Assembly: GCA_017454745.1 (NCBI GenBank)
Contig: JAFTCL010000007.1
Span: forward strand, 9,034-73,033
Source of the DNA: Kiritimatiellia bacterium
Lineage (GTDB): Bacteria; Verrucomicrobiota; Kiritimatiellia; RFP12; UBA1067
Direction of reading: 5' to 3'
Length of the DNA: 64,000 nt
This document shows, piece after piece, positions 2,195-12,204 of this stretch (its first letter is position 1; each line of letters starts with the position of its first letter). The position numbers and the translations under genes were made by a program. The notes below the pieces were generated by a model. The model saw only the letters and a list, made by a program, of their open reading frames with translations. It was not told where the DNA came from and ran no database searches.

Positions 2195-3985
2195 CTACTT
2201 CTGCACCTTTATGGAGTAGAATCCCGATTTGCCGCCCTTGACCGTAATGTTCGGCGTCCACTTTGCCCCATCGCCCACCTTACTGTCGCCATTCGCCATG
2301 TCTTGGAGAGTTGCCCCTTCGATGAGGATGTATGTAAGTCCCCGCCGTGTCGGGGGTGTCGTGATAGACGGATTTTCTGGCGTAAGTTCTATCACCGCGC
2401 CCTTTTCCGTATCCATCGCCTCCCTGACAAACGCTTCCTTTACCGTCGCCGCGGTAAGATTGATTGCGCCTGAAGCGTCGGCAGCGGGAATATTTAGATA
2501 CGGCGTGATGTCATATCCATGGGCGACGACCTTTACCGCCGCCCCGTTCGCGGTTACGCGCTCAACATCCGGGGCAACCTCCACGGTCACCTTCTCGTGC
2601 GCAATGCCGGCGGGGATTATGACTACCACATTCTTGTTGCCATAGCTTGGCCTTACGACGAAACCGTCATCTTTATTGCCCGCCAGCTCAAACACGGCAT
2701 CGTCTTCAACGTACGGCGCATCGGCGACTCCGGCGACTTGCCACTCCACATCATCCAGCCATACGCAATCCAAGCCATCGGCATCGCTGACATCCTTTAT
2801 ATAAGTCCATCGTAGCGTATGCCGTCCATCACCGGTTATGTCGCACGAAACCTTTCCCCACCCATGCATGCCGTCCTGCCACGCCATGCAGACGCCATCG
2901 ACCGAAAACTCCACCCTGTCCCACGGCATCCCCTCATCATCCGTTTCCTCGCACGAGGTCATCCACCAGAAAGACACCGCGCCGCTGCCGTCGACCGTGG
3001 TCTCCAGCCAACTCTCCTGTTCATCGGAGATTCTCCCACTCCTCAACGACTCCCCGCCGCCACGGCCGTTAGACACGTCCCGAGTCCAGCCGGCATCGCC
3101 GGCCGTTGTGAAAGCGAGATCCGGCGCGTTCACGCCGTCTCCCAACGCCCATTCACGGGTTAACGTCGTCTCCACGGTCTCGGACGGCTTGCAGTTTGTC
3201 TTGAATGCCCTCGCTCGGATCGTCACCGTTTCGCCCGCCGCGAGGTTGATATCGAACGGCCCGGCGTAAACTGGGCTGTCTTCCGTCGGCTCGTCCCCGA
3301 GGAGCGAATAGCGGATAACTGCATCCTCAGTATCGCACGAAAGCGTCACCTGCCGCGTCTGGTTGCCAGTGAAAGTCAGATCGCCCTCGACGGCGATCTC
3401 CGGCACCGCCACCACGCCGAACCAATATTGCCCCTGTGTAGTCAGCGCCAGCTCTCCGTCCAGAAACGCCCCCACTGTCACCGTCATCGCGCTTTTCACG
3501 GTAAACGCCTTGAAGACGGGACTATCCGATGTCGGAGTCGTCCCATCGGTAGTGTACCGCAGCTCCGCCCCCTCCACCGAGCAAGAGGCGGAGAGTTTCA
3601 CAGACTTCGCAAGAATGTTCTCGCCAGGCAACGAAAGAGTCAGCCCGCATGATACATAGGCTTTGTAAACTTCAGCCTGGGCCGCGCCGTTGATATAGGT
3701 AGTGTAGGTGAGTTCGTGGCGGCCAAGGCCAGAAAGCCCATGCGCGAATTCTCCGCTGCCGGTCACGCGTCTCACCTCGTTGCCGTTGTCCGCAATCACC
3801 ACCGTCGCATCTGCGTCGCCGCCGATCCATGACGCGTCCCACGGCAAAGCAACTGTGCACAGTACAGGCTCCACCCCCGTGCGCGAATCAACCTTGACCG
3901 GCGCGCTCTCGCACGAGCAAATGACCCGCCCAAGCGATGTCATAGCCATCGCAACTGCAAGAGCGGCTATTATCGTCTTTCGCAT
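2195..3985 (-). CDS. Secreted hypothetical protein with repeated chitobiase/beta-hexosaminidase C-terminal-like (Fn3/Ig-like) domains
   Basis: Signal peptide MRKTIIAALAVAMAMTSLG. Repeated modules such as LRYTTDGTTPTSDSPVFKAF and IRYSLLGDEPTEDSPVYAGPF. No catalytic motif recognised. Confidence 0.5.
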   Translation of the reverse strand: MRKTIIAALAVAMAMTSLGRVICSCESAPVKVDSRTGVEPVLCTVALPWDASWIGGDADATVVIADNGNEVRRVTGSGEFAHGLSGLGRHELTYTTYINGAAQAEVYKAYVSCGLTLSLPGENILAKSVKLSASCSVEGAELRYTTDGTTPTSDSPVFKAFTVKSAMTVTVGAFLDGELALTTQGQYWFGVVAVPEIAVEGDLTFTGNQTRQVTLSCDTEDAVIRYSLLGDEPTEDSPVYAGPFDINLAAGETVTIRARAFKTNCKPSETVETTLTREWALGDGVNAPDLAFTTAGDAGWTRDVSNGRGGGESLRSGRISDEQESWLETTVDGSGAVSFWWMTSCEETDDEGMPWDRVEFSVDGVCMAWQDGMHGWGKVSCDITGDGRHTLRWTYIKDVSDADGLDCVWLDDVEWQVAGVADAPYVEDDAVFELAGNKDDGFVVRPSYGNKNVVVIIPAGIAHEKVTVEVAPDVERVTANGAAVKVVAHGYDITPYLNIPAADASGAINLTAATVKEAFVREAMDTEKGAVIELTPENPSITTPPTRRGLTYILIEGATLQDMANGDSKVGDGAKWTPNITVKGGKSGFYSIKVQK

Positions 3986-3989
3986 AATG

Positions 3990-5291
3990 CTATTCCTCCT
4001 GTTGAAAGTGTTCCGGCGCGGCGGTTGCTTGCGCTACTGGCCGGCCGGGATTGTGCATGTTCGTCTCCGTTTCACGGAGCACTGGCGTACCGAAATGGAA
4101 CCCTGTCTGTTCTGACACGGTGCTGACAAGGCGGAAGCCGTCGTTGTTGTTCTCGTTCGACGGGTTATTGTTGTTCCGGTTGGACGAGTTGCAGTTGTCC
4201 GCATTGTTGTTCCAGCTGCCGCCGCGTTTCACCCGGTTCGACCCGGAGGAAGAACCTTCTTTCGACGCCAAATCCTTCAGAATCCCCTTGAAGCCAAACC
4301 AGCGCGACGCACCATCGCTCGACGCTACGCACTGTGCAAAACGCTTTTCATTCAGCATCCCATTTTCAAACTGCCGCACGCGTTGGGCATACGTTCGCCT
4401 TGTTCGTATGAATCGTACCCGCTTAAGCCGCCAGCAGTTCGGCCAAATGCGCAGTCCAAGAAACGGCACACCATCCGACACTGGAGCAACGACTGTCGCG
4501 CCATCCTTGACTTCAAGACCTCTTTCCTCTTCAAGCCACCGTTTCGCCTCGTCATGCAAATGCCACGCCATCGCCTTGGAATCCGCAAAGAACACAAAGT
4601 CATCCATGTAACGAACATAAGGTACTGACGAAGGCGCGGTAAAACCGCGCCTTGCAACTATCGCTCCCATCCCGCAAATCGCAAGATGGTCGAAAGCGTC
4701 AAGGTACGCATTCGCAAACCATTGACTAGTAAGGTTGCCTATCGGCAGCCCGCGCCCTGTCGACAACCCAGGCACGGGGTGCCGCACGATCAGCTCAATC
4801 AAGTTCTTCACGCTTGTCTCGCGGAATTTCGGCAACAACACACCCAGCAACCATTCATGGCCAATGCTGTCGAAATACTTGCGGATGTCCATCTTGCAAA
4901 AGTATTTGGCCTGGCCTGCATACCGCCGCACCAACGCGCATGCCGCATGTGCGCCATATCCTTTACGGCAGGCGAAACTGACGGGAACGAAACTGCGTTC
5001 GATCAACGGTGCAATCACGCCGCAAAGCGCATGATGCACGACCCTGTCGGCCACCGGGGCGCAACTGATCGTTCTTGGTTTGGGATCGAATATCCTGAAC
5101 TGACGATAATCCGACGGCCGATATCTGCCGTTTATCAATTTGTCGCGCAAACAAGCAAGATTAACATCAAGGCAGGCTTCAAATTCTTGTACTGCGACAG
5201 ACGGCGCATGGCCTCGTCTCACGCGTCGCCAAGCCTTGCGAAGATTCTCTTCAGAGACAATCTTCACCCAAATGCCGCCGTAAGATCTCAC
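3990..5291 (-). CDS. DGR-type reverse transcriptase (RT domain about 4260-5291; the uninterrupted ORF continues in frame through the template repeat)
   Basis: RT motifs PRTISCAPVADRVVHHAL, KMDIRKYFDSI and YVRYMDDFVFFA (YxDD box). The start overlaps the upstream HRDC gene by 4 nt. Residues about 346-391 of the ORF are the TR translated in the VR frame (GSSSGSNRVKRGGSWNNNADNCNSSNRNNNNPSNENNNDGFRLV). Confidence 0.85.
   Translation of the reverse strand: MRSYGGIWVKIVSEENLRKAWRRVRRGHAPSVAVQEFEACLDVNLACLRDKLINGRYRPSDYRQFRIFDPKPRTISCAPVADRVVHHALCGVIAPLIERSFVPVSFACRKGYGAHAACALVRRYAGQAKYFCKMDIRKYFDSIGHEWLLGVLLPKFRETSVKNLIELIVRHPVPGLSTGRGLPIGNLTSQWFANAYLDAFDHLAICGMGAIVARRGFTAPSSVPYVRYMDDFVFFADSKAMAWHLHDEAKRWLEEERGLEVKDGATVVAPVSDGVPFLGLRIWPNCWRLKRVRFIRTRRTYAQRVRQFENGMLNEKRFAQCVASSDGASRWFGFKGILKDLASKEGSSSGSNRVKRGGSWNNNADNCNSSNRNNNNPSNENNNDGFRLVSTVSEQTGFHFGTPVLRETETNMHNPGRPVAQATAAPEHFQQEE
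4113..4256 (-). repeat. DGR template repeat (TR), including the IMH*-like 3' end
   Basis: About 134 bp of near-identity to the 3' end of the target gene (5941-6074). Homology is weaker over the terminal about 10 nt (4113-4122 vs 5931-5940). All but one TR/VR difference fall at coding-strand adenines of the TR. The TR is rich in AAC/AAT codons (15 Asn). Confidence 0.85.
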
Positions 5292-5848
5292 GCGATCACC
5301 TCCCCATCGTTTGAAGCGGCTGGACTGCAGTTTTCCGGAGGCTGCGGCCTATCACCTTTGGAAAGCGGCGCATCCGCCGCTTTCATACCTGCGCCGCCCA
5401 TCAGCTCCAACACGCTCTTCCCATACTTAACGCAAAAACCTTCTCCTAAACCTTCAACCTCCTTTATGCCTGACAGCGACTTGGGCATAGCTTTCACTAG
5501 TTCCGCCAATTGAGTGTTTCTCGCTATCGCATACGCCGGCCGGCCTTCGGCTTTCGCCGTTTCGTTTCTCCATGTCTTCAACGCGCGGTAGCAAGTTTTT
5601 TGTGCATCCGTAAGACCATCCTCGGGATTCGGTGCTGTCGCATCTCGTGGACGGTACGAACCCGCGTTCTCGTATTCTGGAGAATCTCCAAGCGACAAAA
5701 CGAGCGACAAATGGGGAACATTGCCATGCACAAAGAAATGTTCAGAGACATTCAACACCTCACGCCCGAATGTGGCAATACGTAGTGCTTCTTCAGGGAA
5801 ACCCTGAAGCGCCTCGTTGTATCGCAATGTGACAACCCGTATCTGCAT
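5288..5848 (-). CDS. DGR accessory protein with C-terminal HRDC-like domain (used in place of Avd)
   Basis: C-terminal segment GRPAYAIARNTQLAELVKAMPKSLSGIKEVEGLGEGFCVKYGKSVLE resembles the HRDC fold. It lies between the target gene and the RT and overlaps the RT start. The N-terminal extent is uncertain. Confidence 0.6.
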   Translation of the reverse strand: MQIRVVTLRYNEALQGFPEEALRIATFGREVLNVSEHFFVHGNVPHLSLVLSLGDSPEYENAGSYRPRDATAPNPEDGLTDAQKTCYRALKTWRNETAKAEGRPAYAIARNTQLAELVKAMPKSLSGIKEVEGLGEGFCVKYGKSVLELMGGAGMKAADAPLSKGDRPQPPENCSPAASNDGEVIA

Positions 5849-5918
5849 GGTTTGTGCCTCGCTGGCTGGTCGGCCCGTGCGCTACCGCGCCGGTCCGCCC
5901 GCCCTTGCGCTCCGCGTA

Positions 5919-8900
5919 TTATTCATTATTTGACAGGGTTCTGACAAGGCGGAAGCCGTCGTTGTTGTACCCGTCCGACGGGTAGCCGCTGCTCCGGTTG
6001 GACGAGCCGCAGTTGTCCGCAATGCTGCGCCAGCTGCCGCCGCGTTCCACCCGGCCCGACCCGGAGGAAGAACCCTTTGGGTCTGTCACTCCGCTTGATA
6101 GACTGCCATACCAATCAAGGCACCATTCCCACACATTGCCACTCATGTCGTACAAGCCCCAAGCGTTAGGATTCTTTGTTCCAACGGGTTGCGTTCCACT
6201 GCTTGAATTACTACCATACCACGCATAGCCGCCGTCCATCGAATCCCCCCAGTAATATACTGTCGTTGCTCCCGCGCGGCAGGCAAATTCCCACTGAGCC
6301 TCGGTGGGAAGGTCGAAATCCAACCCCGTCCGGGCGCGCAGCTTGCCCATGAACGATGAAGAATCCACCGCTGATGATGACGGCCAATCCGAGCCTGCCG
6401 ATGAGCCTCGGATTGAATTGTAGCTAACTTTCTCCACGGGCCGAGTGTCTCCGGAGAAATAGGACGGATTCGATCCCGTCACCAACATATACTGTTTCTG
6501 CGTCACCTCGAACACGCCGCAATAGAACGGTTCCGTCAATGTCACGTCATACGATCCGCGCATCTTGAACGAACCCGGCCCGATGAGACGCAGCACCAGT
6601 TTTGTCGTCTTGTACTCGTCCGACCAACCGCCGGGCGGGATTTCCGCGAGATATGAGACCGGATACGACGATGCGCCGGATCCGGCCGAAAGGTCAATCA
6701 CGCAGTATTTTTCATAATGTTGATACCCAACCGAAAACACCACGGCATCCGAGTTGATTTCCAGTCCCTGCGCATTCAGATCCCAGACAACGTGATGCGA
6801 ACCTTCATCCGTTCCCGTGTCGCCGGAGAGCGCGGAAGCGGCAGCCGCGTATGTCGTGCCGTCCACGCGGTTCGACGCCGTTAACGAAAGGAAGGGCATC
6901 ACCCCTGACGGCAGTCCCGCTGTCACATCACCAACCACGGTGTAAGTGACATCAACCTTCCCGTTCCACGGATACCGCTGTTTAGCCGTGACGTTCCGAA
7001 TCATTACAGTATCCCACTTCGCGTACAGCGTCGCCACCGATGATGACACCGTGTTCGTGGCATACACACGCGTTGTCAGCGACGAATCGGAACACCACCC
7101 TGCGAACGTGAAGCCGCTCTTCACCGGCGTCGGCAGACTGCCGTACGTGCCGCCGACCGTGTACTGCTGCGAACTGCACGAGCTCCCGCCGTTAGAGCTG
7201 AACGAGACCGTAATGTATTCTATCCACCATGCATAAAGCGTTGTCCCACTTGTCTTGTCCCACATCCTTGCACTTGCGCCGGAACCCGTGTAGTACTGTG
7301 TTCCGTATCCATCCGTAGATGTGTAATAGCCCCCGAACGAGTAGCCAGTTCGAGTTGGCGGTGTTATGGACGGCATCGCGCTTCCGTATGTCGCCGTAAC
7401 GCTTGACGTGCCATCGCTTCCGCCATACCGGTCCAGCGCAACATTATAGGTGTTTGCCGTCCATTTCGCGTATAGCGTTGTCCCACATGTCTTGTCCCAC
7501 ATCCTTGCACTTGCGCCGGAACCCGTGTAGTACTGTGTTCCGTATCCATCCGTAGAAGTGTAATAGCCCCCGAACGAGTAGCCAGTTCGAGTTGGCGGTG
7601 TTATGGACGGCATCGCGCTTCCGCATACTGCATACACTGCCTCCGTGCCACCGCTTCCCGACTTCATATTTAACGTCACTTTTGGCGCCCAAGACACTTT
7701 ATCCAAGTAGGCAGACACCAAACCGCTCTGATACGATGAATCTGTGCTTTTACACTCCCATTTAATTTTATGAGTGCCCGCCGAAATCGAGAAAGTTCGC
7801 TGTTCAAAATCAGAAAACATACCGGTAGCATAATTCGGATCCAGAGGATTATCCCCGTCAACAGAAAATTCTAACGAGTCAAAATGTGATTTCCCCGATA
7901 TATACCACCAGAAAGAGAGCCTTCCCGGACCTGTAACTGTTGTCTCAATTTGTCCACACTTGCTAACGCTATACATAGAACAACAGGCAGCGTCCACACC
8001 ATCATAACTTTTAGCCGTTTGAGCGTACCACGGGAAATCCCCACTTGTCGAAAATTCAAGGAATTCATTGTCCAAAGCTTCGGAAAGTGCCAACTGTGGC
8101 ATCTGGGCTGCCTCTTGGGTAAATTTATGGGTTTGAACACTGTTTCCACATGTAAACGTGATTGTAACTTCACGTTCATAAGGTGTCGTATTTGCGGCAA
8201 CTTCATATGAGGCAGTAAAACTTCCTTTGAATGGCGTCACCGGCATTGTAGACCACGACCAAAACGAACCTCCCCAGCCAGACACAGTTTCCTCCTCTGT
8301 CCACGAGGAATCGCACGAGATCTTGATTGTTCCAGTTCCCCCTGAAGCCGGTATCGTTCTCGTTTGCGGCGACACGCTGATTCCTCCATTTCCGGACGAA
8401 GCGGTGATCGTCACAGACTTCGTTATCGACTTGCCACCGTATTCGGCTTTGATTGTCACACTCTGCAACGACGACACACTATTAGCCGTCAGTTTGCCAG
8501 ACGAATTAATGGAAGCATAAGAACTTCCAGAAGTTATCGACCACGAGGGCGAAACCGATTTCGTCGATCCATCGCTCATGGTAGCAGTACATGTGTATGC
8601 GGCGTTGCCGCCGGACGATACGCTGGATGCCCCGGAAATGGCGATGGAAGAAACGGTCAAAGAGGAGGAGGAACCCGCAGCCTGCTTGATGGTGAGGTAA
8701 TCGCCAAAAGTGTTCAGTTTGGCGCGCCACGACCTTTCCGCCCCGGTGTTTTCAAAACAATTCGCGGTGATTACTATCGGCTGGAATCCGTTCCCGCGGT
8801 CAAACAAATAGGCGGAATTGTATTCCGATTCCCCATAAAGCACGGCATTGATATCGTACAGCGCAATACCGTATTTATATTCGTATGCCGTTGTCCCGGC

Positions 8901-9458
8901 GTATGCGCCGGTATCTATCGGTCCCATGGTTTGCCACCCCGCTATCCACACGTGCAAAATCCATGACGCCACTTGATAGGAAAAAGTGCTTCCCCACGCC
9001 CCCGATGTCATTTCGTAAGGGGCGTGAAAAGTCAATGTGGCATTCGAGCCTTGAGCGTCAATTTCAAGCACATACTCCCGCGGGGCGACCGCGGTCTCCG
9101 CATGTGCGGCGATCGGCATCGCCGCGGCAATTACCATTGAAAACAAGGATGCAAAGGCGCATACCGAGTGGATGATGAGCTTTGCGCCCACACCGGCAAA
9201 TGCCTTTGCGCCACGACGCCAATCGCCGCGCACGGTTTTCCCCGATGGGTCTTCACCGCAATCAGCCATAGTTCCAGACGGTAAAAAAGCAGCCTCCTCC
9301 GCAATCGCGATATTACTGCGTCCTTCTGTCATGTGCTTTATGAATTGTCCATTCATTAGATTTCCCTTCCTTAACCAAATTCCAAGACCAGGCATGAGCA
9401 GATTTGCCAGCATGTCCGTGCCGCTATCCGCTTGCCGCAACTTCAGAAAAGCCTTCAA
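5919..9458 (-). CDS. DGR target protein: large secreted multi-domain protein with Big_2, tandem Listeria-Bacteroides (Flg_new) repeats and a C-terminal FGE-sulfatase/C-type-lectin-fold domain carrying the VR
   Basis: C-terminal ...FACRAGATTVYYWGDSMDGGYAWYGSNS...GNVWEWCLDWYGS...GSSSGSGRVERGGSWRSIADNCGSSNRSSGYPSDGYNNDGFRLV is a formylglycine-generating-enzyme-like lectin fold. A signal-peptide-like stretch (AKLIIHSVCAFASLFSMVIAAAMPIAAHA) sits about 65-95 aa into the ORF, so the true start may be internal (for example near 9269). Confidence 0.8.
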   Translation of the reverse strand: MKAFLKLRQADSGTDMLANLLMPGLGIWLRKGNLMNGQFIKHMTEGRSNIAIAEEAAFLPSGTMADCGEDPSGKTVRGDWRRGAKAFAGVGAKLIIHSVCAFASLFSMVIAAAMPIAAHAETAVAPREYVLEIDAQGSNATLTFHAPYEMTSGAWGSTFSYQVASWILHVWIAGWQTMGPIDTGAYAGTTAYEYKYGIALYDINAVLYGESEYNSAYLFDRGNGFQPIVITANCFENTGAERSWRAKLNTFGDYLTIKQAAGSSSSLTVSSIAISGASSVSSGGNAAYTCTATMSDGSTKSVSPSWSITSGSSYASINSSGKLTANSVSSLQSVTIKAEYGGKSITKSVTITASSGNGGISVSPQTRTIPASGGTGTIKISCDSSWTEEETVSGWGGSFWSWSTMPVTPFKGSFTASYEVAANTTPYEREVTITFTCGNSVQTHKFTQEAAQMPQLALSEALDNEFLEFSTSGDFPWYAQTAKSYDGVDAACCSMYSVSKCGQIETTVTGPGRLSFWWYISGKSHFDSLEFSVDGDNPLDPNYATGMFSDFEQRTFSISAGTHKIKWECKSTDSSYQSGLVSAYLDKVSWAPKVTLNMKSGSGGTEAVYAVCGSAMPSITPPTRTGYSFGGYYTSTDGYGTQYYTGSGASARMWDKTCGTTLYAKWTANTYNVALDRYGGSDGTSSVTATYGSAMPSITPPTRTGYSFGGYYTSTDGYGTQYYTGSGASARMWDKTSGTTLYAWWIEYITVSFSSNGGSSCSSQQYTVGGTYGSLPTPVKSGFTFAGWCSDSSLTTRVYATNTVSSSVATLYAKWDTVMIRNVTAKQRYPWNGKVDVTYTVVGDVTAGLPSGVMPFLSLTASNRVDGTTYAAAASALSGDTGTDEGSHHVVWDLNAQGLEINSDAVVFSVGYQHYEKYCVIDLSAGSGASSYPVSYLAEIPPGGWSDEYKTTKLVLRLIGPGSFKMRGSYDVTLTEPFYCGVFEVTQKQYMLVTGSNPSYFSGDTRPVEKVSYNSIRGSSAGSDWPSSSAVDSSSFMGKLRARTGLDFDLPTEAQWEFACRAGATTVYYWGDSMDGGYAWYGSNSSSGTQPVGTKNPNAWGLYDMSGNVWEWCLDWYGSLSSGVTDPKGSSSGSGRVERGGSWRSIADNCGSSNRSSGYPSDGYNNDGFRLVRTLSNNE
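5931..6074 (-). repeat. DGR variable repeat (VR) at the 3' end of the target gene, including the putative IMH end
   Basis: Pairs with TR 4113-4256. 11 of 15 TR Asn codons are altered in the VR (N to G/R/S/I/G/S/S/G/Y/D/Y), plus K to E and E to G, all by A-to-N changes. Confidence 0.85.
7244..7630. repeat. Intragenic tandem duplication (about 239-bp period, roughly 1.6 copies) encoding the Flg_new-type repeats of the DGR target
   Basis: Near-identical DNA at 7244-7390 and 7483-7630. These encode ...SAMPSITPPTRTGYSFGGYYTSTDGYGTQYYTGSGASARMWDKT.GTTLYA.W twice. Confidence 0.8.
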
Positions 9459-9916
9459 TCCAACTTAAACATCCGTTTCGACGGGTCGTCTGAAAGCTTC
9501 TCAATCAGCATATCCACCAATCTATCACCGGCTTCCGCATGAGCTACCGCCCCACTGTTGTTTCCTTTCACTTGACCTTTTGCGTCTATCAGACGATGGA
9601 GGACCGCCGACAGTCTTCTATCATAGGAATTCAGCAAAAATGACAATTCTCCCATCAGATTGCTTCTATATCTGTATGCCTCTATCAATTCCCAACATAC
9701 TCTGTAGTTTTTCCTGGCCGCACTATTGATACCCCATATAGTCATAAACGCCATGGCATAACACCCAAAGGTTATAAACAAACGAGTTGTTCCATCCGGC
9801 AGCTTAATGTCAAAATACCAGGCTTGTACAGCCGCTGCGACGCATATCAATATCAACAGCACATCCGTTGCAAGTTCAACAATCTTCCAAATCAACATGA
9901 TCGATGTACGCGGCAT
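9455..9916 (-). CDS. Hypothetical small membrane protein (two N-terminal TM helices)
   Basis: 153-aa ORF in markedly lower-GC DNA. Its stop overlaps the annotated start of the DGR target by 4 nt. No recognisable domain. Confidence 0.5.
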   Translation of the reverse strand: MPRTSIMLIWKIVELATDVLLILICVAAAVQAWYFDIKLPDGTTRLFITFGCYAMAFMTIWGINSAARKNYRVCWELIEAYRYRSNLMGELSFLLNSYDRRLSAVLHRLIDAKGQVKGNNSGAVAHAEAGDRLVDMLIEKLSDDPSKRMFKLD

Positions 9917-9935
9917 CTTTTATCCTCCATTCGGT

Positions 9936-11183
9936 TTAAACCCCGCCATAGCATTCTTTCCAGAATTTGCAAACACCGCATTGGCAATGGCGCGATTTGA
10001 AATCAAACGCCTTATCCTTAATGTCCTGAAACATTAATTCATGGGAACGCAGCTCTATACCGGGGTGGGGACCATAATCGACATTGTCCATAATCCACGC
10101 GTTTTCCAGAATCATTACCACTTCACGCGTACGGACGTAGTGAAGACCGTACTCAATGCTGTAGCGGCAGTAAAAAACAAGAAGCGAAGCCGCAATCAAC
10201 ACGGAGAAAGCCAATACCGTTCCGCTAGATTCAGGATTCGCCGGACATCGGCCCCTGTTTTCAAGTATCTTGATTTGGCATTTCGCCGATACTAACACTT
10301 CTCCGGAATTCTCGCGCACCGGACTTTCGCGATTGTCCATTACGCTGTGAATGACAGGCTGTCCCTGCCGACAATCGCAGTTTGCGTTTCCACATATATT
10401 GAAGGCGGCAATTACAGCCGCTACAAAAAATGACAACAATAAAACCCTGAAGATAAATGTCAAGACATACCAAAGCGAACACAACATTCGGATATGGCAT
10501 TCGTTACGCACCATGTCAAGGATCAGATTGGTGTGCCCGGAACTTCTTAAACGTTGCTTGATAATGTTTATGTACGTCTTGCTGCAAACCCCCTTCTGGT
10601 ATTCTTTCTTGAAGTGCATGCCGCCGCTTCCTTCGCACCAAGGCACATAATCGGCCAGTTTTTGCAAACCTCGGCAACACAAATACTTTCTCATTGACGG
10701 GTAAGGGTAATCGATGCTTGTTCCCGCTTTTCGCAATATCCAATGTTCACGGTCCAGCCAAAAACGCAAACGCCCGAACAGTCCGGACGGGATTGCGCAG
10801 TTTTGGGTGAAAGAAACCGCAAGTCTGCCAACCTCGTCGGGCGAAGAACCGTTTTTGGTCAACAACCATTGATGGTGGGAGGAAATCGTATCCGGAGTCT
10901 TGGGAGACCGCCTATAGGCTATGGCCCCGGCCACATAAGACAAAGCAAGGAAAATAAACATGCCTCCAGCAGTGCTGCAAGTCAACCGCAACACTTCTTT
11001 AATCAAATCTTTATTCGGCATCGCATAGTAGCAAAGGCCAAAAGCGATTAAGAACAAACCGGCAACCGCGATTATGCCCGGAATCAACGTTCCGAAGAAT
11101 TCGATATAAAAATTCTGGACGAGAGACAGAGTCCCCCATATATTGTCAAACAAACTGCTTCTAGAATCTCTAGATTTGGACAT
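9936..11183 (-). CDS. Hypothetical Cys-rich polytopic membrane protein
   Basis: 415-aa ORF in lower-GC DNA with multiple hydrophobic segments and many Cys (CCRG, CDCRQG, HCQCGVCKFWKECYGG). No recognisable family. Confidence 0.5.
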   Translation of the reverse strand: MSKSRDSRSSLFDNIWGTLSLVQNFYIEFFGTLIPGIIAVAGLFLIAFGLCYYAMPNKDLIKEVLRLTCSTAGGMFIFLALSYVAGAIAYRRSPKTPDTISSHHQWLLTKNGSSPDEVGRLAVSFTQNCAIPSGLFGRLRFWLDREHWILRKAGTSIDYPYPSMRKYLCCRGLQKLADYVPWCEGSGGMHFKKEYQKGVCSKTYINIIKQRLRSSGHTNLILDMVRNECHIRMLCSLWYVLTFIFRVLLLSFFVAAVIAAFNICGNANCDCRQGQPVIHSVMDNRESPVRENSGEVLVSAKCQIKILENRGRCPANPESSGTVLAFSVLIAASLLVFYCRYSIEYGLHYVRTREVVMILENAWIMDNVDYGPHPGIELRSHELMFQDIKDKAFDFKSRHCQCGVCKFWKECYGGV

Positions 11184-11460
11184 TCAATGTCTCCATCAAC
11201 AATTCAGAGTGTTTATTGAAATGTGCTGGATAGAGGAGACCCGCATCCCGGATTCGCCGACGCGACTTCCTCCGCGCCAAACCGTACGCGCCAATTTCCC
11301 GCATACGAATGTTTATCGAGTGCGTTTTTCGCCGTCATGGATCCGTCCCTTCCTTAATTTGCAGGTCATGGATAGCACATCCGCCTGTTCAACTGCCAGA
11401 AAATCCGATTACCGGAGGGAGGGGGAAATTGACACCTCCTCCGATGCATCACGGATAGGT

Positions 11461-11559
11461 GCCTAGGACGGACCTCTAAAAGATACATCGAAGGAGGCGA
11501 GACTGCACGTGACAAGGCAGTGCCTCTTTGATGCGTCTTTTAGAATAAGTTTCCTAGGC
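11461..11559. other. Long imperfect hairpin (about 25-bp stem, 23-nt loop) in a 600-bp intergenic region; possible structured RNA or regulatory element
   Basis: gcctaggacggacc-tctaaaagatacatcgaaggaggc-[gagactgcacgtgacaaggcagt]-gcctctttgatgcgtcttttaga-ataagtttcctaggc. The arms are reverse-complementary apart from a few mismatches or wobble pairs. A second hairpin ccggagggaggg...cctcctccg sits at 11411-11445. Confidence 0.35.
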
Positions 11560-11760
11560 TTTATCCGTGACGCGCCCTAACGCGGGTTCTAGCCCGCGCG
11601 GGAAATCTGTTTGTCACATTTCCCAAAACGGCCTTATCCGTCTAAGGAAAAGAACATATAAATGTTACCATATTTGCCATTTATTTGCAATATTGAAATA
11701 ACCGCCATCCGCGTTTTTGTGACGCGAATCAACCAAGGGGATTTGTTCGCGGCTGACGCC

Positions 11761-11802
11761 GTTAGGAGAGGTTGAAGCCCGACGGCAGGACGCGCGTCAT
11801 GC
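11761..11802 (+). repeat. 42-bp exact direct repeat, copy 2
   Basis: Identical to 2126-2167. It overlaps the stop codon (11797-11799) and last codons of the 11797-12204 gene. Confidence 0.9.
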
Positions 11803-12204
11803 GCGTTTAGAGGGATCCGGGCGGCGGGCGAGGAATCGGGCAATCATTTCAGCAAGCGCTAGGTATTGAAGACTGCCCAAGACTCCGAAGAACAGAATCG
11901 GGAAGAGAACCTCTCTCAACAAAAAGGAGCGTAACAGCATGATTGCCGGCAGTTGCAGGAGCGACGAGGGTAAATCCGCAATATCGAACCAGAGCCAGCC
12001 CAGCAATGCTTCACTGGGTCCGAGTTTAAGCATATCCGCCTCAATCGTCCAGGCGACAATCAGTACAGCGGCGAGATGGATGCCGCCAACTGCGATAGCC
12101 GTGCGGGAAAAACGGAACTTGTTACGAAGCAAAAGGCTTGCCGCAACAAACAATCCGGTCGCAATGATAGATGTTATAAGAACCAAAGCGGTACGCAGCG
12201 GCAT
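11797..12204 (-). CDS. Hypothetical membrane protein
   Basis: 135 aa with 3-4 predicted TM helices. No recognisable domain. Confidence 0.45.
   Translation of the reverse strand: MPLRTALVLITSIIATGLFVAASLLLRNKFRFSRTAIAVGGIHLAAVLIVAWTIEADMLKLGPSEALLGWLWFDIADLPSSLLQLPAIMLLRSFLLREVLFPILFFGVLGSLQYLALAEMIARFLARRPDPSKRA

Follow-up and report, generated by a model that had tools for sequence, protein, structure and literature searches.

The locus described here is very probably a chromosomal diversity-generating retroelement (DGR) of the HRDC-accessory type, with a cassette without Avd, and its template repeat (TR) is embedded in a conserved structured RNA with strong covariation. On the minus strand the cassette runs from the target gene through the HRDC gene and the reverse transcriptase (RT) gene to the TR (Table 1); all parts are present, and the element is apparently intact. 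The initial annotation had proposed a complete DGR, made up of a target with a variable repeat (VR), an HRDC gene, an RT and a TR, and each of these components was verified. We document the parts, the adenine bias of the TR/VR differences, their recurrence across the family and the pairings of the RNA. Tens of thousands of DGRs have been catalogued, and as a DGR the locus is one more example of a well-known kind of system; the HRDC (Avd-less) type is less studied, and it is this type that the more useful output concerns.

The analysis covered a window of 64 kb, that is, the whole stretch of DNA examined, from a rumen or gut Kiritimatiellae MAG, and our literature search returned no paper naming DGRs together with Kiritimatiellae. 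The neighbors on the 151-kb contig are GH95, ABC transporter and MoxR/VWA genes, with no phage genes in the context of the locus, in agreement with the chromosomal system first proposed. The RT is known from one assembly only, and the locus copy recovered among its relatives (L001), which comes from the same contig, has one difference from the window in 15,291 nt, outside the VR.

Table 1. Features of the DGR locus (positions in the window).
Feature	Position	Strand	Remarks
Target gene	5919..9458	-	1179-aa ORF from TTG
VR (variable repeat)	5931..6074	-	Codes for the last ~48 target residues; substitutions span 5969-6056
VR 3' end, IMH-like	5931..5960	-	20-nt GC-rich stretch, then 10 nt with two non-A differences
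GC-rich imperfect hairpin	5864..5903	-	Between target stop and HRDC start codons; DNA fold z=-2.9
Accessory gene	5288..5848	-	186 aa; stop codon overlaps RT start codon
RT ORF	3990..5291	-	433 aa; ends at TAG 3990-3992
Helix P0, 5' strand	4260..4270	-	RNAalifold on 26 loci; pairs with 4083-4095
TR (template repeat)	4113..4256	-	16 AAY codons; 36 adenines in the diversified part
Hairpin P1	4100..4121	-	Last TR bases 4115-4121 pair with 4100-4106
Single-stranded UCCA, then P0 3' strand	4083..4099	-	Conserved; family consensus CCCA; 3' strand 4083-4095
Hairpin P2	4062..4081	-	UGCUCCGU / ACGGAGACG; then conserved ACGAACAUGC at 4051-4061
Hairpin P3	4012..4050	-	Conserved internal (C/U)RGUAG, small inner hairpin, weak U-rich tail

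Repeats, target, reverse transcriptase and accessory gene

TR and VR form a 144-nt direct repeat of 86% identity at an offset of 1818 bp, as determined with a repeat finder and by alignment. On the coding (minus) strand they differ at 20 positions, 17 of which have an A in the TR (13 A>G, 3 A>T, 1 A>C), a bias with a hypergeometric p of 1.1e-8 (40 A in 144 nt). Two of the three remaining mismatches fall in the last 10 nt (C>A at 4122/5940 and G>C at 4118/5936) and the other inside the VR (T>C at TR 4167 / VR 5985). The alignment and tabulation called for by the initial annotation thus bear out its claim of adenine-directed differences, and its wording that all but one mismatch has an A in the TR is exact for the 134-nt core (4123-4256 / 5941-6074), with 17 of 18. 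Every codon change that it listed is present, and the quoted peptides, the YVRYMDDFVFFA box, the HRDC ORF and the 1179-aa ORF were all found; its count of about 20 mismatches belongs to the 144 nt and not to the 134-bp segments, which hold 18, and the downstream copy, rightly placed, is 1.8 kb away instead of about 1.7 kb. Ahead of the IMH-like end, 1 of 108 non-A positions has changed, from which we infer little drift since the last homing event. Nearly all TR adenines of the diversified part (35 of 36) occupy codon positions 1 or 2, and the 16 AAY codons, together with the few other codons containing A, allow about 6e20 possible peptides. A third copy of the repeat was sought in the 64-kb window with exact 20-mers with <=3 mismatches and by a scan ignoring A positions; none was found, nor were further VRs or remote targets in the same window.

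The 3' ends of the two repeats have the arrangement by which directionality is recognized (IMH versus IMH*), a common GC-rich stretch followed by few non-A differences: positions 5941-5960 (GACGGCTTCCGCCTTGTCAG) are identical in TR and VR, and in the following 10 nt the VR departs from the TR at the non-A positions 5940 and 5936. A dichotomy of IMH type extends across the family, with AGCAC in TRs and AGGAC in VRs; the VR of the window has A at 5940, where those of its relatives have G, and the position is otherwise invariant in the family. Furthermore, a GC-rich hairpin or cruciform with a 4-nt GRNA loop, located 4-34 bp downstream of the VR, is a mark of DGRs (Guo et al., 2011; PMC3240598), and such a structure stands at 5864-5903, with its base about 27 nt past the VR. 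It has a GCGC/GCGC core stem, perfect over no more than 4 bp and embedded in a longer, imperfect one, and a 4-nt loop, GGTA (5883-5886), that fits GRNA. At least 14 relatives also have hairpins with a GGTA loop 3' of the VR, with stem sequences that differ. A long-range inverted repeat (3896-3918 / 5873-5895) was also observed, and it is probably due to chance, since one of its arms is this VR hairpin, itself nearly palindromic.

The target ORF was confirmed at 1179 aa, the public gene call starting six codons later (1173 aa), and the exact 1179-aa target was absent from the protein collection searched. Its N-terminus has, by eye, a signal-peptide-like region, and a weak BACON match and three Listeria-Bacteroides repeats precede the lectin part; this N-terminal portion is not common to the targets of related loci. 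The FGE-sulfatase-type C-type lectin fold expected from the first reading was recovered as PF03781 at the C-terminus (residues about 971-1173), and the C-terminal 262 aa have their best PDB match in TvpA of Treponema denticola (2y3c, E=1e-29), in an alignment that crosses the VR. The VR therefore lies in a C-terminal lectin/FGE-sulfatase fold with the adenines of its template in AAY codons, as in other DGR targets. We regard the product as a large secreted or surface protein with a hypervariable lectin tip, an architecture that suggests adaptive binding to changing gut ligands.

The RT proper comprises residues 1 to ~340 (5291 to ~4272), and beyond these the ORF stays open, in the same frame, across the TR and the RNA element that follows it. 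An RT with the YVRYMDDFVFFA box had been placed between the two repeats, where it is indeed present; its ORF, however, does not end between them but runs through the TR to 3990. Of the 120 closest RT homologues, 119 have the TR in the frame of the VR, and in-frame indels in the RT-TR linker accompany the ORF overlap. The best solved relative is the Bordetella bRT (8ub7, E=7e-41), compared with 4e-17 for the best group II RT (GsI-IIC); YMDD is present, and IGNLTSQ aligns with IGSLTSQ of bRT. In motif 4, DGR RTs have the consensus [I/L]GxxxSQ, whereas group II and retron RTs have QGxxxSP. Judged from its motifs and closest matches, the RT belongs with those of DGRs. All other family scores are far below their cut-offs: 135 bits against the group II model TIGR04416 (cut-off 300), 41 bits against retron St85 (235), 32 bits against Drt3a (200) and 16.5 bits against AbiA (250), the best RT match in PADLOC being to the generic RT model only. 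No group II ribozyme or retron RNA was matched by Rfam in 3700-6300 at E<=1. Consequently, a group II intron was rejected, with the RT below cut-off and no flanking ribozyme domains by Rfam, as was a retron or defence RT (DRT, Abi), with scores far below cut-offs and no retron RNA; the RT is of neither the retron nor the group II clade, as the initial annotation had implied.

DGR cassettes are expected to carry an accessory gene (Avd, HRDC, MSL or CH1), and here the HRDC gene occupies this place between target and RT; no Avd-like match was obtained among the cassette ORFs with Pfam and NCBIfam. Both the ORF and its HRDC domain (residues ~81-150) were verified, and the N-terminus of the protein forms a conserved ~55-aa beta-alpha-alpha-beta-beta domain whose fold family was not recognized. 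With an HRDC-domain accessory gene in the cassette, which is its defining feature, the locus is a member of Architecture C (Wu et al., 2018). The flanking ORFs 9455-9916, 9936-11183 and 2195-3985 were rejected as cassette members, as they are not conserved beside related DGRs, the sole exception being one unrelated match to the downstream flanking gene near a related DGR.

The comparison set comprised 80 loci with RT relatives (33-70% identity), each of which was compared with itself. TR/VR pairs were found in about 55 of them, mainly from PVC bacteria, and in these pairs TR adenines account for no less than 70% of the mismatches, mostly for 85-100%. Most of the loci with a pair have the order VR, HRDC, RT, TR, and the HRDC gene adjoins the RT in most related loci.

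Structured RNA around the template repeat

The 5' strand of P0 precedes the TR by 4 nt, and the P0 loop encloses the entire TR; its segments are 91% and 97% paired, with changes on both sides in 7 of 10 pairs. Compensatory changes occur in all six pairs of P1 (92% of cells paired) and in 7 of the 8 pairs of P2 (95% paired), and the invariant C4122 of the TR stands immediately 5' of the P1 stem. The P3 element looks like a terminator because a clear U-tract follows it in relatives, the tract being weak in the window. Over the RNA alignment, paired cells make up 90.9%, compared with 35-42% in slid controls, and 21 of 23 pairs are compensatory, a value matched by none of 500 shuffles; once the long-range helix is counted as well, the paired fraction is 88.6%, compared with 34-45%, and compensatory cells number 131. 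Moreover, P0, P1, P2 and P3 all pair within the window's own sequence. The RNA thus pairs both with the TR 3' end and with a segment upstream of the TR, as expected of a structured DGR RNA, the correspondence being one of topology only.

A covariance model (R1) was built for the downstream part only (J12, P2, J23 and the P3 region; 106 positions), its automatic consensus retaining only the P2 pairs. It matches the window once, at 4008-4109 on the minus strand (83 bits), and gives one match per locus, always directly 3' of the TR; in two loci (L048 and L050) the TR lies upstream of the RT and the element still comes directly after the TR. Rfam, including the RT-1 to RT-19 motifs, gave no match at E<=1 in the window region and four related loci. 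A helix inside the TR (GCGGCAGCU with GGCUUCCGC) is not claimed, both strands being conserved coding sequence with almost no compensatory change. In scans for promoters and terminators nothing exceeded shuffled expectation, and the weak U-tract after P3 and the lack of a promoter above chance were counted against the DGR reading.

Proposed mechanism and alternative readings

By analogy with the Bordetella phage DGR we infer the priming site (at P1), the stop function (at P0), the role of the HRDC protein, including any contact of it with the RNA, and present-day activity, which the initial annotation had put too firmly in stating that the system hypervaries a ligand-binding surface. The TR transcript (4256-4113) would fold so that P0 (4270-4260 with 4095-4083) closes around the TR, and the last bases of the TR would form the adjacent helix P1 (4121-4115 with 4106-4100). 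At the base of P1, near C4122/G4123, the RT would start the cDNA, with the HRDC protein probably bound to P2/P3 and acting with it; the RT would then copy the TR, misincorporate opposite adenines and stop at P0. The 3' end of the target gene would then receive the cDNA in place of its VR (6074-5931), guided by the GC-rich stretch that TR and VR have in common, by the 3' bases specific to the VR and by the hairpin with the GGTA loop at 5864-5903. Only the 16 AAY and few other A-containing codons would change, with the variation falling on the ligand-binding face of the lectin fold.

Among the other readings, the one that deserves most weight, although we consider it unlikely, is that of a DGR by descent that is now inactive, perhaps silenced only recently, in which the TR/VR differences record past homing and the cassette is maintained or decaying. 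The derivation of the RT and of the locus copy from one contig of a single assembly, the T>C difference within the VR and the A in place of G at the family-invariant IMH position would all suit it; the three ORFs are nevertheless intact, YMDD and IGNLTSQ are present, P0 to P3 pair in the window's own sequence, a hairpin with a GRNA loop stands after the VR, TR and VR agree throughout the 20-nt GC-rich stretch, and a single one of the 108 non-A positions has changed before the IMH-like end. The structured RNA has a rival of its own, since the RT ORF is open through the region in the window and in its closest homologues, and the conserved sequence after the TR might be the coding C-terminus of the RT instead of a functional RNA. 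This is very improbable, as the frames differ among homologues (GDEHA and ETNMH both derive from GGAGACGAACATGCAC), the RT of distant relatives stops before the TR while the element persists, in L048 and L050 the element comes after the TR instead of the RT, and the substitutions are compensatory for base pairing.

It is scarcely credible that the repeats are an ordinary partial duplication or a gene-conversion remnant beside an unrelated RT (retron, group II fragment or defence RT), with the adenine excess a coincidence. The sub-threshold group II, retron and DRT matches of the RT can be cited for it, as they could for any bacterial RT, but they are far below curated cut-offs, Rfam detects no such RNA, bRT leads the solved matches by 24 orders of magnitude, the adenine bias has a p of 1e-8 and the same pattern is found independently in about 55 related loci; in practice, the comparative data refute it.

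Returning to the DGR reading, we give about even weight to the view that the TR-flanking RNA (P0, P1, CCCA, P2, ACGAACAUGC and P3 with GUAG) serves a large Avd-less clade of HRDC-type DGRs, mainly in PVC bacteria, as its scaffold for cis-priming and stopping. If this were true, the two-duplex core of the Bordetella phage RNP would be ancestral to DGRs, the protein-specific modules having been exchanged, with P2/P3 in place of the Avd-binding stem-loop and, in place of Avd, an HRDC protein with a new N-terminal domain, and a concrete, testable model of Avd-independent mutagenic reverse transcription would be at hand. No description of a mechanism for HRDC-type DGRs was found in the literature examined. 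In this context, the locus and about 25 relatives provide a covariation-supported RNA map, comprising the bases that close the TR, those that hold its 3' end and the conserved downstream hairpins, and this map and the two-domain accessory protein lay the basis for reconstitution work on DGR function in the absence of Avd.

Comparison with known DGRs

Architecture C, which contains HRDC, accounted for 14 of 372 DGRs (4%) in a previous classification (Wu et al., 2018; PMC5758913). The DGR of Treponema denticola (TvpA, 2y3c) likewise has an HRDC accessory gene in its cassette, and both targets have a C-type-lectin fold of the FGE-sulfatase type and carry the VR at their very C-terminal end. The present target, however, has about four times the length, its lectin domain being preceded by Listeria-Bacteroides repeats and a weak BACON match, and the host is a Kiritimatiellae bacterium and not a spirochaete. 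The "group 3" cassettes of DiGReF were classified by arrangement only (Schillinger et al., 2012; PMC3521204); beyond that description, the RT/TR overlap is here in the VR frame, as in 119 of 120 homologues, with in-frame linker indels.

The DGR of Bordetella phage BPP-1 (mtd-avd-TR-brt) is known from structures of bRT, Avd and RNA (8ub7-8ube), and its bRT is the closest solved relative of the present RT, the DGR-type motif 4 being common to both. Also shared are adenine-specific TR-to-VR differences, an identical GC-rich stretch beyond which the 3' bases diverge and, 3' of the VR, a GC-rich hairpin whose 4-nt loop is of the GRNA type. Furthermore, the topology of the RNA is the same, the downstream RNA entering into two neighboring duplexes, of which one involves the TR 3' end and the other a segment upstream of the TR. 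The RT-10 RNA family was placed in BPP-1 by Weinberg et al., and the published survey of RNA elements covers Avd-containing DGRs only; the downstream RNA described here (P2, ACGAACAUGC and P3 with GUAG) matches no Rfam family, RT-10 included. Avd is replaced here by an HRDC protein that has an additional N-terminal domain, and the TR follows the RT and is contained in the RT ORF, whereas in BPP-1 it separates the accessory gene from the RT. As for the long-range helix, its upstream strand falls in avd in BPP-1 and here in the codons of the RT-TR linker. In contrast to the phage-borne BPP-1 system, which diversifies a tail-fibre tip, the present element is chromosomal and its target is a large multidomain secreted protein.

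Repeat pair, target and reverse transcriptase

Repeat finding and alignment identified a 144-nt direct repeat (86% identity, 1818 bp offset, minus strand), of which one copy is the template repeat (TR) and the other the variable repeat (VR) of a diversity-generating retroelement (DGR); no third copy was found across the 64-kb window. When the 20 mismatches were tabulated on the coding strand, the TR base was A in 17 of them (A>G 13, A>T 3, A>C 1), an excess with a hypergeometric probability of 1.1e-8 given 40 A per 144 bases, and the adenine bias described in the initial annotation was thereby confirmed. The others were a T>C at 4167/5985 (TR/VR) and, within the last 10 nt of the repeat, C>A (4122/5940) and G>C (4118/5936); hence the annotated pattern, with all differences but one at a TR adenine, holds for the 134-nt core (17 of 18 mismatches). 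Codon-by-codon reading of the TR gave 16 AAY codons, and since 35 of the 36 adenines of its diversified part occupy codon positions 1 or 2, about 6e20 peptides are allowed.

Coordinates of the DGR features in the window
Feature	Position	Strand	Description or basis
RT ORF, 433 aa	3990-5291	minus	reverse transcriptase (RT)
P3 hairpin	4040-4050 with 4012-4022	minus	26-locus alignment
P2 hairpin	4074-4081 with 4062-4070	minus	26-locus alignment
P1 hairpin	4115-4121 with 4100-4106	minus	26-locus alignment
P0 long-range helix	4260-4270 with 4083-4095	minus	fold of longer alignment
TR	4113-4256	minus	template repeat
HRDC accessory gene	5288-5848	minus
GC-rich imperfect hairpin, GGTA loop	5864-5903	minus	between target stop codon and HRDC start codon
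VR	5931-6074	minus	variable repeat
Target ORF, 1179 aa	5919-9458	minus	three Listeria-Bacteroides repeats, weak BACON match, C-terminal FGE-sulfatase domain

The best solved-structure match of the last 262 target residues was TvpA, a variable protein (2y3c, E=1e-29), in an alignment that extends through the VR, which together with the C-terminal domain agrees with the proposed FGE-sulfatase-type lectin fold. Within the target gene, two 176-nt copies (7214-7389 and 7451-7626; 93% identity, 237 nt apart) are a recent internal duplication of a Listeria-Bacteroides repeat unit, and position 7557, the only one at which the window departs from the public contig copy, lies inside it. Moreover, GC falls to 0.49 across 8001-12000 (about 0.57 elsewhere), an interval that takes in the 5' portion of the target gene and, upstream of it, the ORFs at 9455-9916 (probable membrane protein) and 9936-11183. 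Neither ORF had a Pfam or NCBIfam match or was found adjoining related DGRs, and this low-GC segment may have been separately acquired.

The closest solved relative of the RT was Bordetella phage bRT (8ub7, E=7e-41, versus 4e-17 for a group II intron RT), whose IGSLTSQ aligned to IGNLTSQ in the window, where YMDD is also present. Scores as a group II, retron, Drt3a or AbiA family member were far under the NCBIfam cut-offs, and the RT is thus of DGR type, as first annotated. Identical RT and HRDC proteins are recorded on a 151-kb contig of a Kiritimatiellae MAG, among GH95, ABC transporter and MoxR/VWA genes; these ordinary chromosomal neighbours confirm the chromosomal location initially suggested. 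The next gene downstream (2195-3985, minus strand, 596 aa) starts 5 nt past the RT ORF stop and carries a signal peptide (by eye) and two CHB_HEX_C_1 / Fn3_assoc domains, its AGGAGG ribosome-binding site being placed in the RT ORF tail directly past P3. One related locus (L017) encodes, a few kb from its DGR, a relative of this gene's C-terminal half.

Relatives and the reading frame through the TR

Scanning one genome per species for RT relatives gave 80 loci (33-70% identity), mostly from Kiritimatiellae, Lentisphaerae, Planctomycetota and Verrucomicrobia, but also from Riflebacteria, Myxococcota and Accumulibacter. On self-comparison, about 55 of the 80 proved to contain a TR/VR pair, in which TR adenines accounted for no less than 70%, and mostly 85-100%, of the mismatches. 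In most of these the gene order was VR, HRDC, RT and TR, with the TR beginning 15-100 nt past the RT domain. This recurrence is strong family-level evidence for a functioning DGR design, as opposed to a chance arrangement peculiar to this genome. Two loci, L048 (5873-6130, Accumulibacter) and L050 (4937-5318, Lamprocystis), are laid out differently, with a TR that is shared by two or three VRs and placed about 2 kb upstream of the RT.

The RT ORF continues in frame through the TR (3990-4272, minus strand), so that the RT carries an Asn-rich counterpart of the peptide at the C-terminus of the target. This C-terminal extension was also found in the 120 closest RT homologues (52-78% identity), in the VR frame in 119, and all changes in RT-TR linker length among them were in frame. 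In more distant relatives the RT ends just ahead of the TR. The DNA past the TR is read in differing frames among homologues (GDEHA and ETNMH both derive from GGAGACGAACATGCAC), which suggested conservation at the level of RNA and not of peptide.

RNA structure and target-site signals

In an alignment of 26 loci, 90.9% of P1-P3 cells were paired, against 35-42% with the partners slid, and 21 of 23 pairs showed changes on both sides, a number reached by none of 500 shuffles. The single strands that set these hairpins apart (CCCA; ACGAACAUGC; a GUAG inside P3) are near-invariant. In the P3 interior (4023-4039, minus strand), a small, variable inner hairpin is flanked on the 5' side by a conserved (C/U)RGUAG and on the 3' side, in most relatives, by CGAAC/CAAAA; the AGUA/GAA may resemble a loop-E or sarcin-ricin type motif. 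Furthermore, a segment of 11 nt shortly before the TR forms the 5' strand of P0, which encloses the TR and P1. With P0 included, 88.6% of cells were paired, compared with 34-45% when partners were slid; compensatory cells numbered 131, and one P0 pair was CG in 12 loci, GC in 8, AU in 5 and UA in 1, never unpaired.

A covariance model built only on the part downstream of the TR gave one match per locus, always directly past the TR, including 12 loci outside the training set, the two with the TR upstream of the RT, and a single match in the window (4008-4109). Since the conserved RNA still directly follows the TR in L048 and L050, what it accompanies is the template, not the RT gene. No matching Rfam family was found for this TR-flanking RNA.

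A GC-rich stretch of 20 nt is identical in TR and VR and is followed by two non-A differences. In nearly every relative, to RT identities of about 35% (L003-L081), the TR has AGCAC where the VR has AGGAC, so that a TR-C / VR-G difference is conserved; in the window the bases are C4122 and A5940. This base sits immediately 5' of P1 and is a conserved, putative directionality or priming position. At least 14 relatives have, past the VR, hairpins with a GGTA loop and differing stems, and the window hairpin fits the published description, in which a GC-rich stem with a 4-nt GRNA loop stands 4-34 bp past the VR (PMC3240598). One arm of this hairpin (5873-5895) forms a 23-nt inverted repeat, 83% complementary, with 3896-3918, about 195 nt past the TR in the signal-peptide codons of the next gene; it is probably due to chance, given the near-palindromic, GC-rich nature of the hairpin.

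Comparison with known systems and proposed mechanism

The initial reading of a complete DGR was correct in all essentials, and the kind of system is already known: HRDC-containing DGRs constitute Architecture C (14 of 372 DGRs; PMC5758913), and cassettes whose TR overlaps the RT ORF at its 3' end correspond to DiGReF group 3 (PMC3521204). The DGR itself would not surprise a specialist, and the RNA map and its Avd-less context are of moderate added value.

With the parts, adenine bias, recurrence in relatives and RNA pairings observed, a mechanism may be proposed by analogy. cDNA synthesis would start near C4122/G4123, where P1 has its base, in which case the two mismatches of the type found at the 3' end of the VR (IMH), being at or 3' of this start, would never be transferred to the VR. 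Synthesis would stop at P0, 4 nt ahead of the TR start, and the HRDC protein could take the place of Avd in holding the RNA, perhaps at P2/P3.

The Treponema element is the representative of Architecture C, and TvpA of the Treponema denticola DGR is the closest solved match to the target C-terminus. In the Bordetella DGR, a cryo-EM study, whose survey of other DGRs covered Avd-containing ones only, described two adjacent duplexes formed by the downstream (Sp) RNA, one with the TR 3' end, which positions the priming nucleotide, and one with a segment upstream of the TR, which stops synthesis. This two-duplex topology is the same as that of P1 and P0 in the window.
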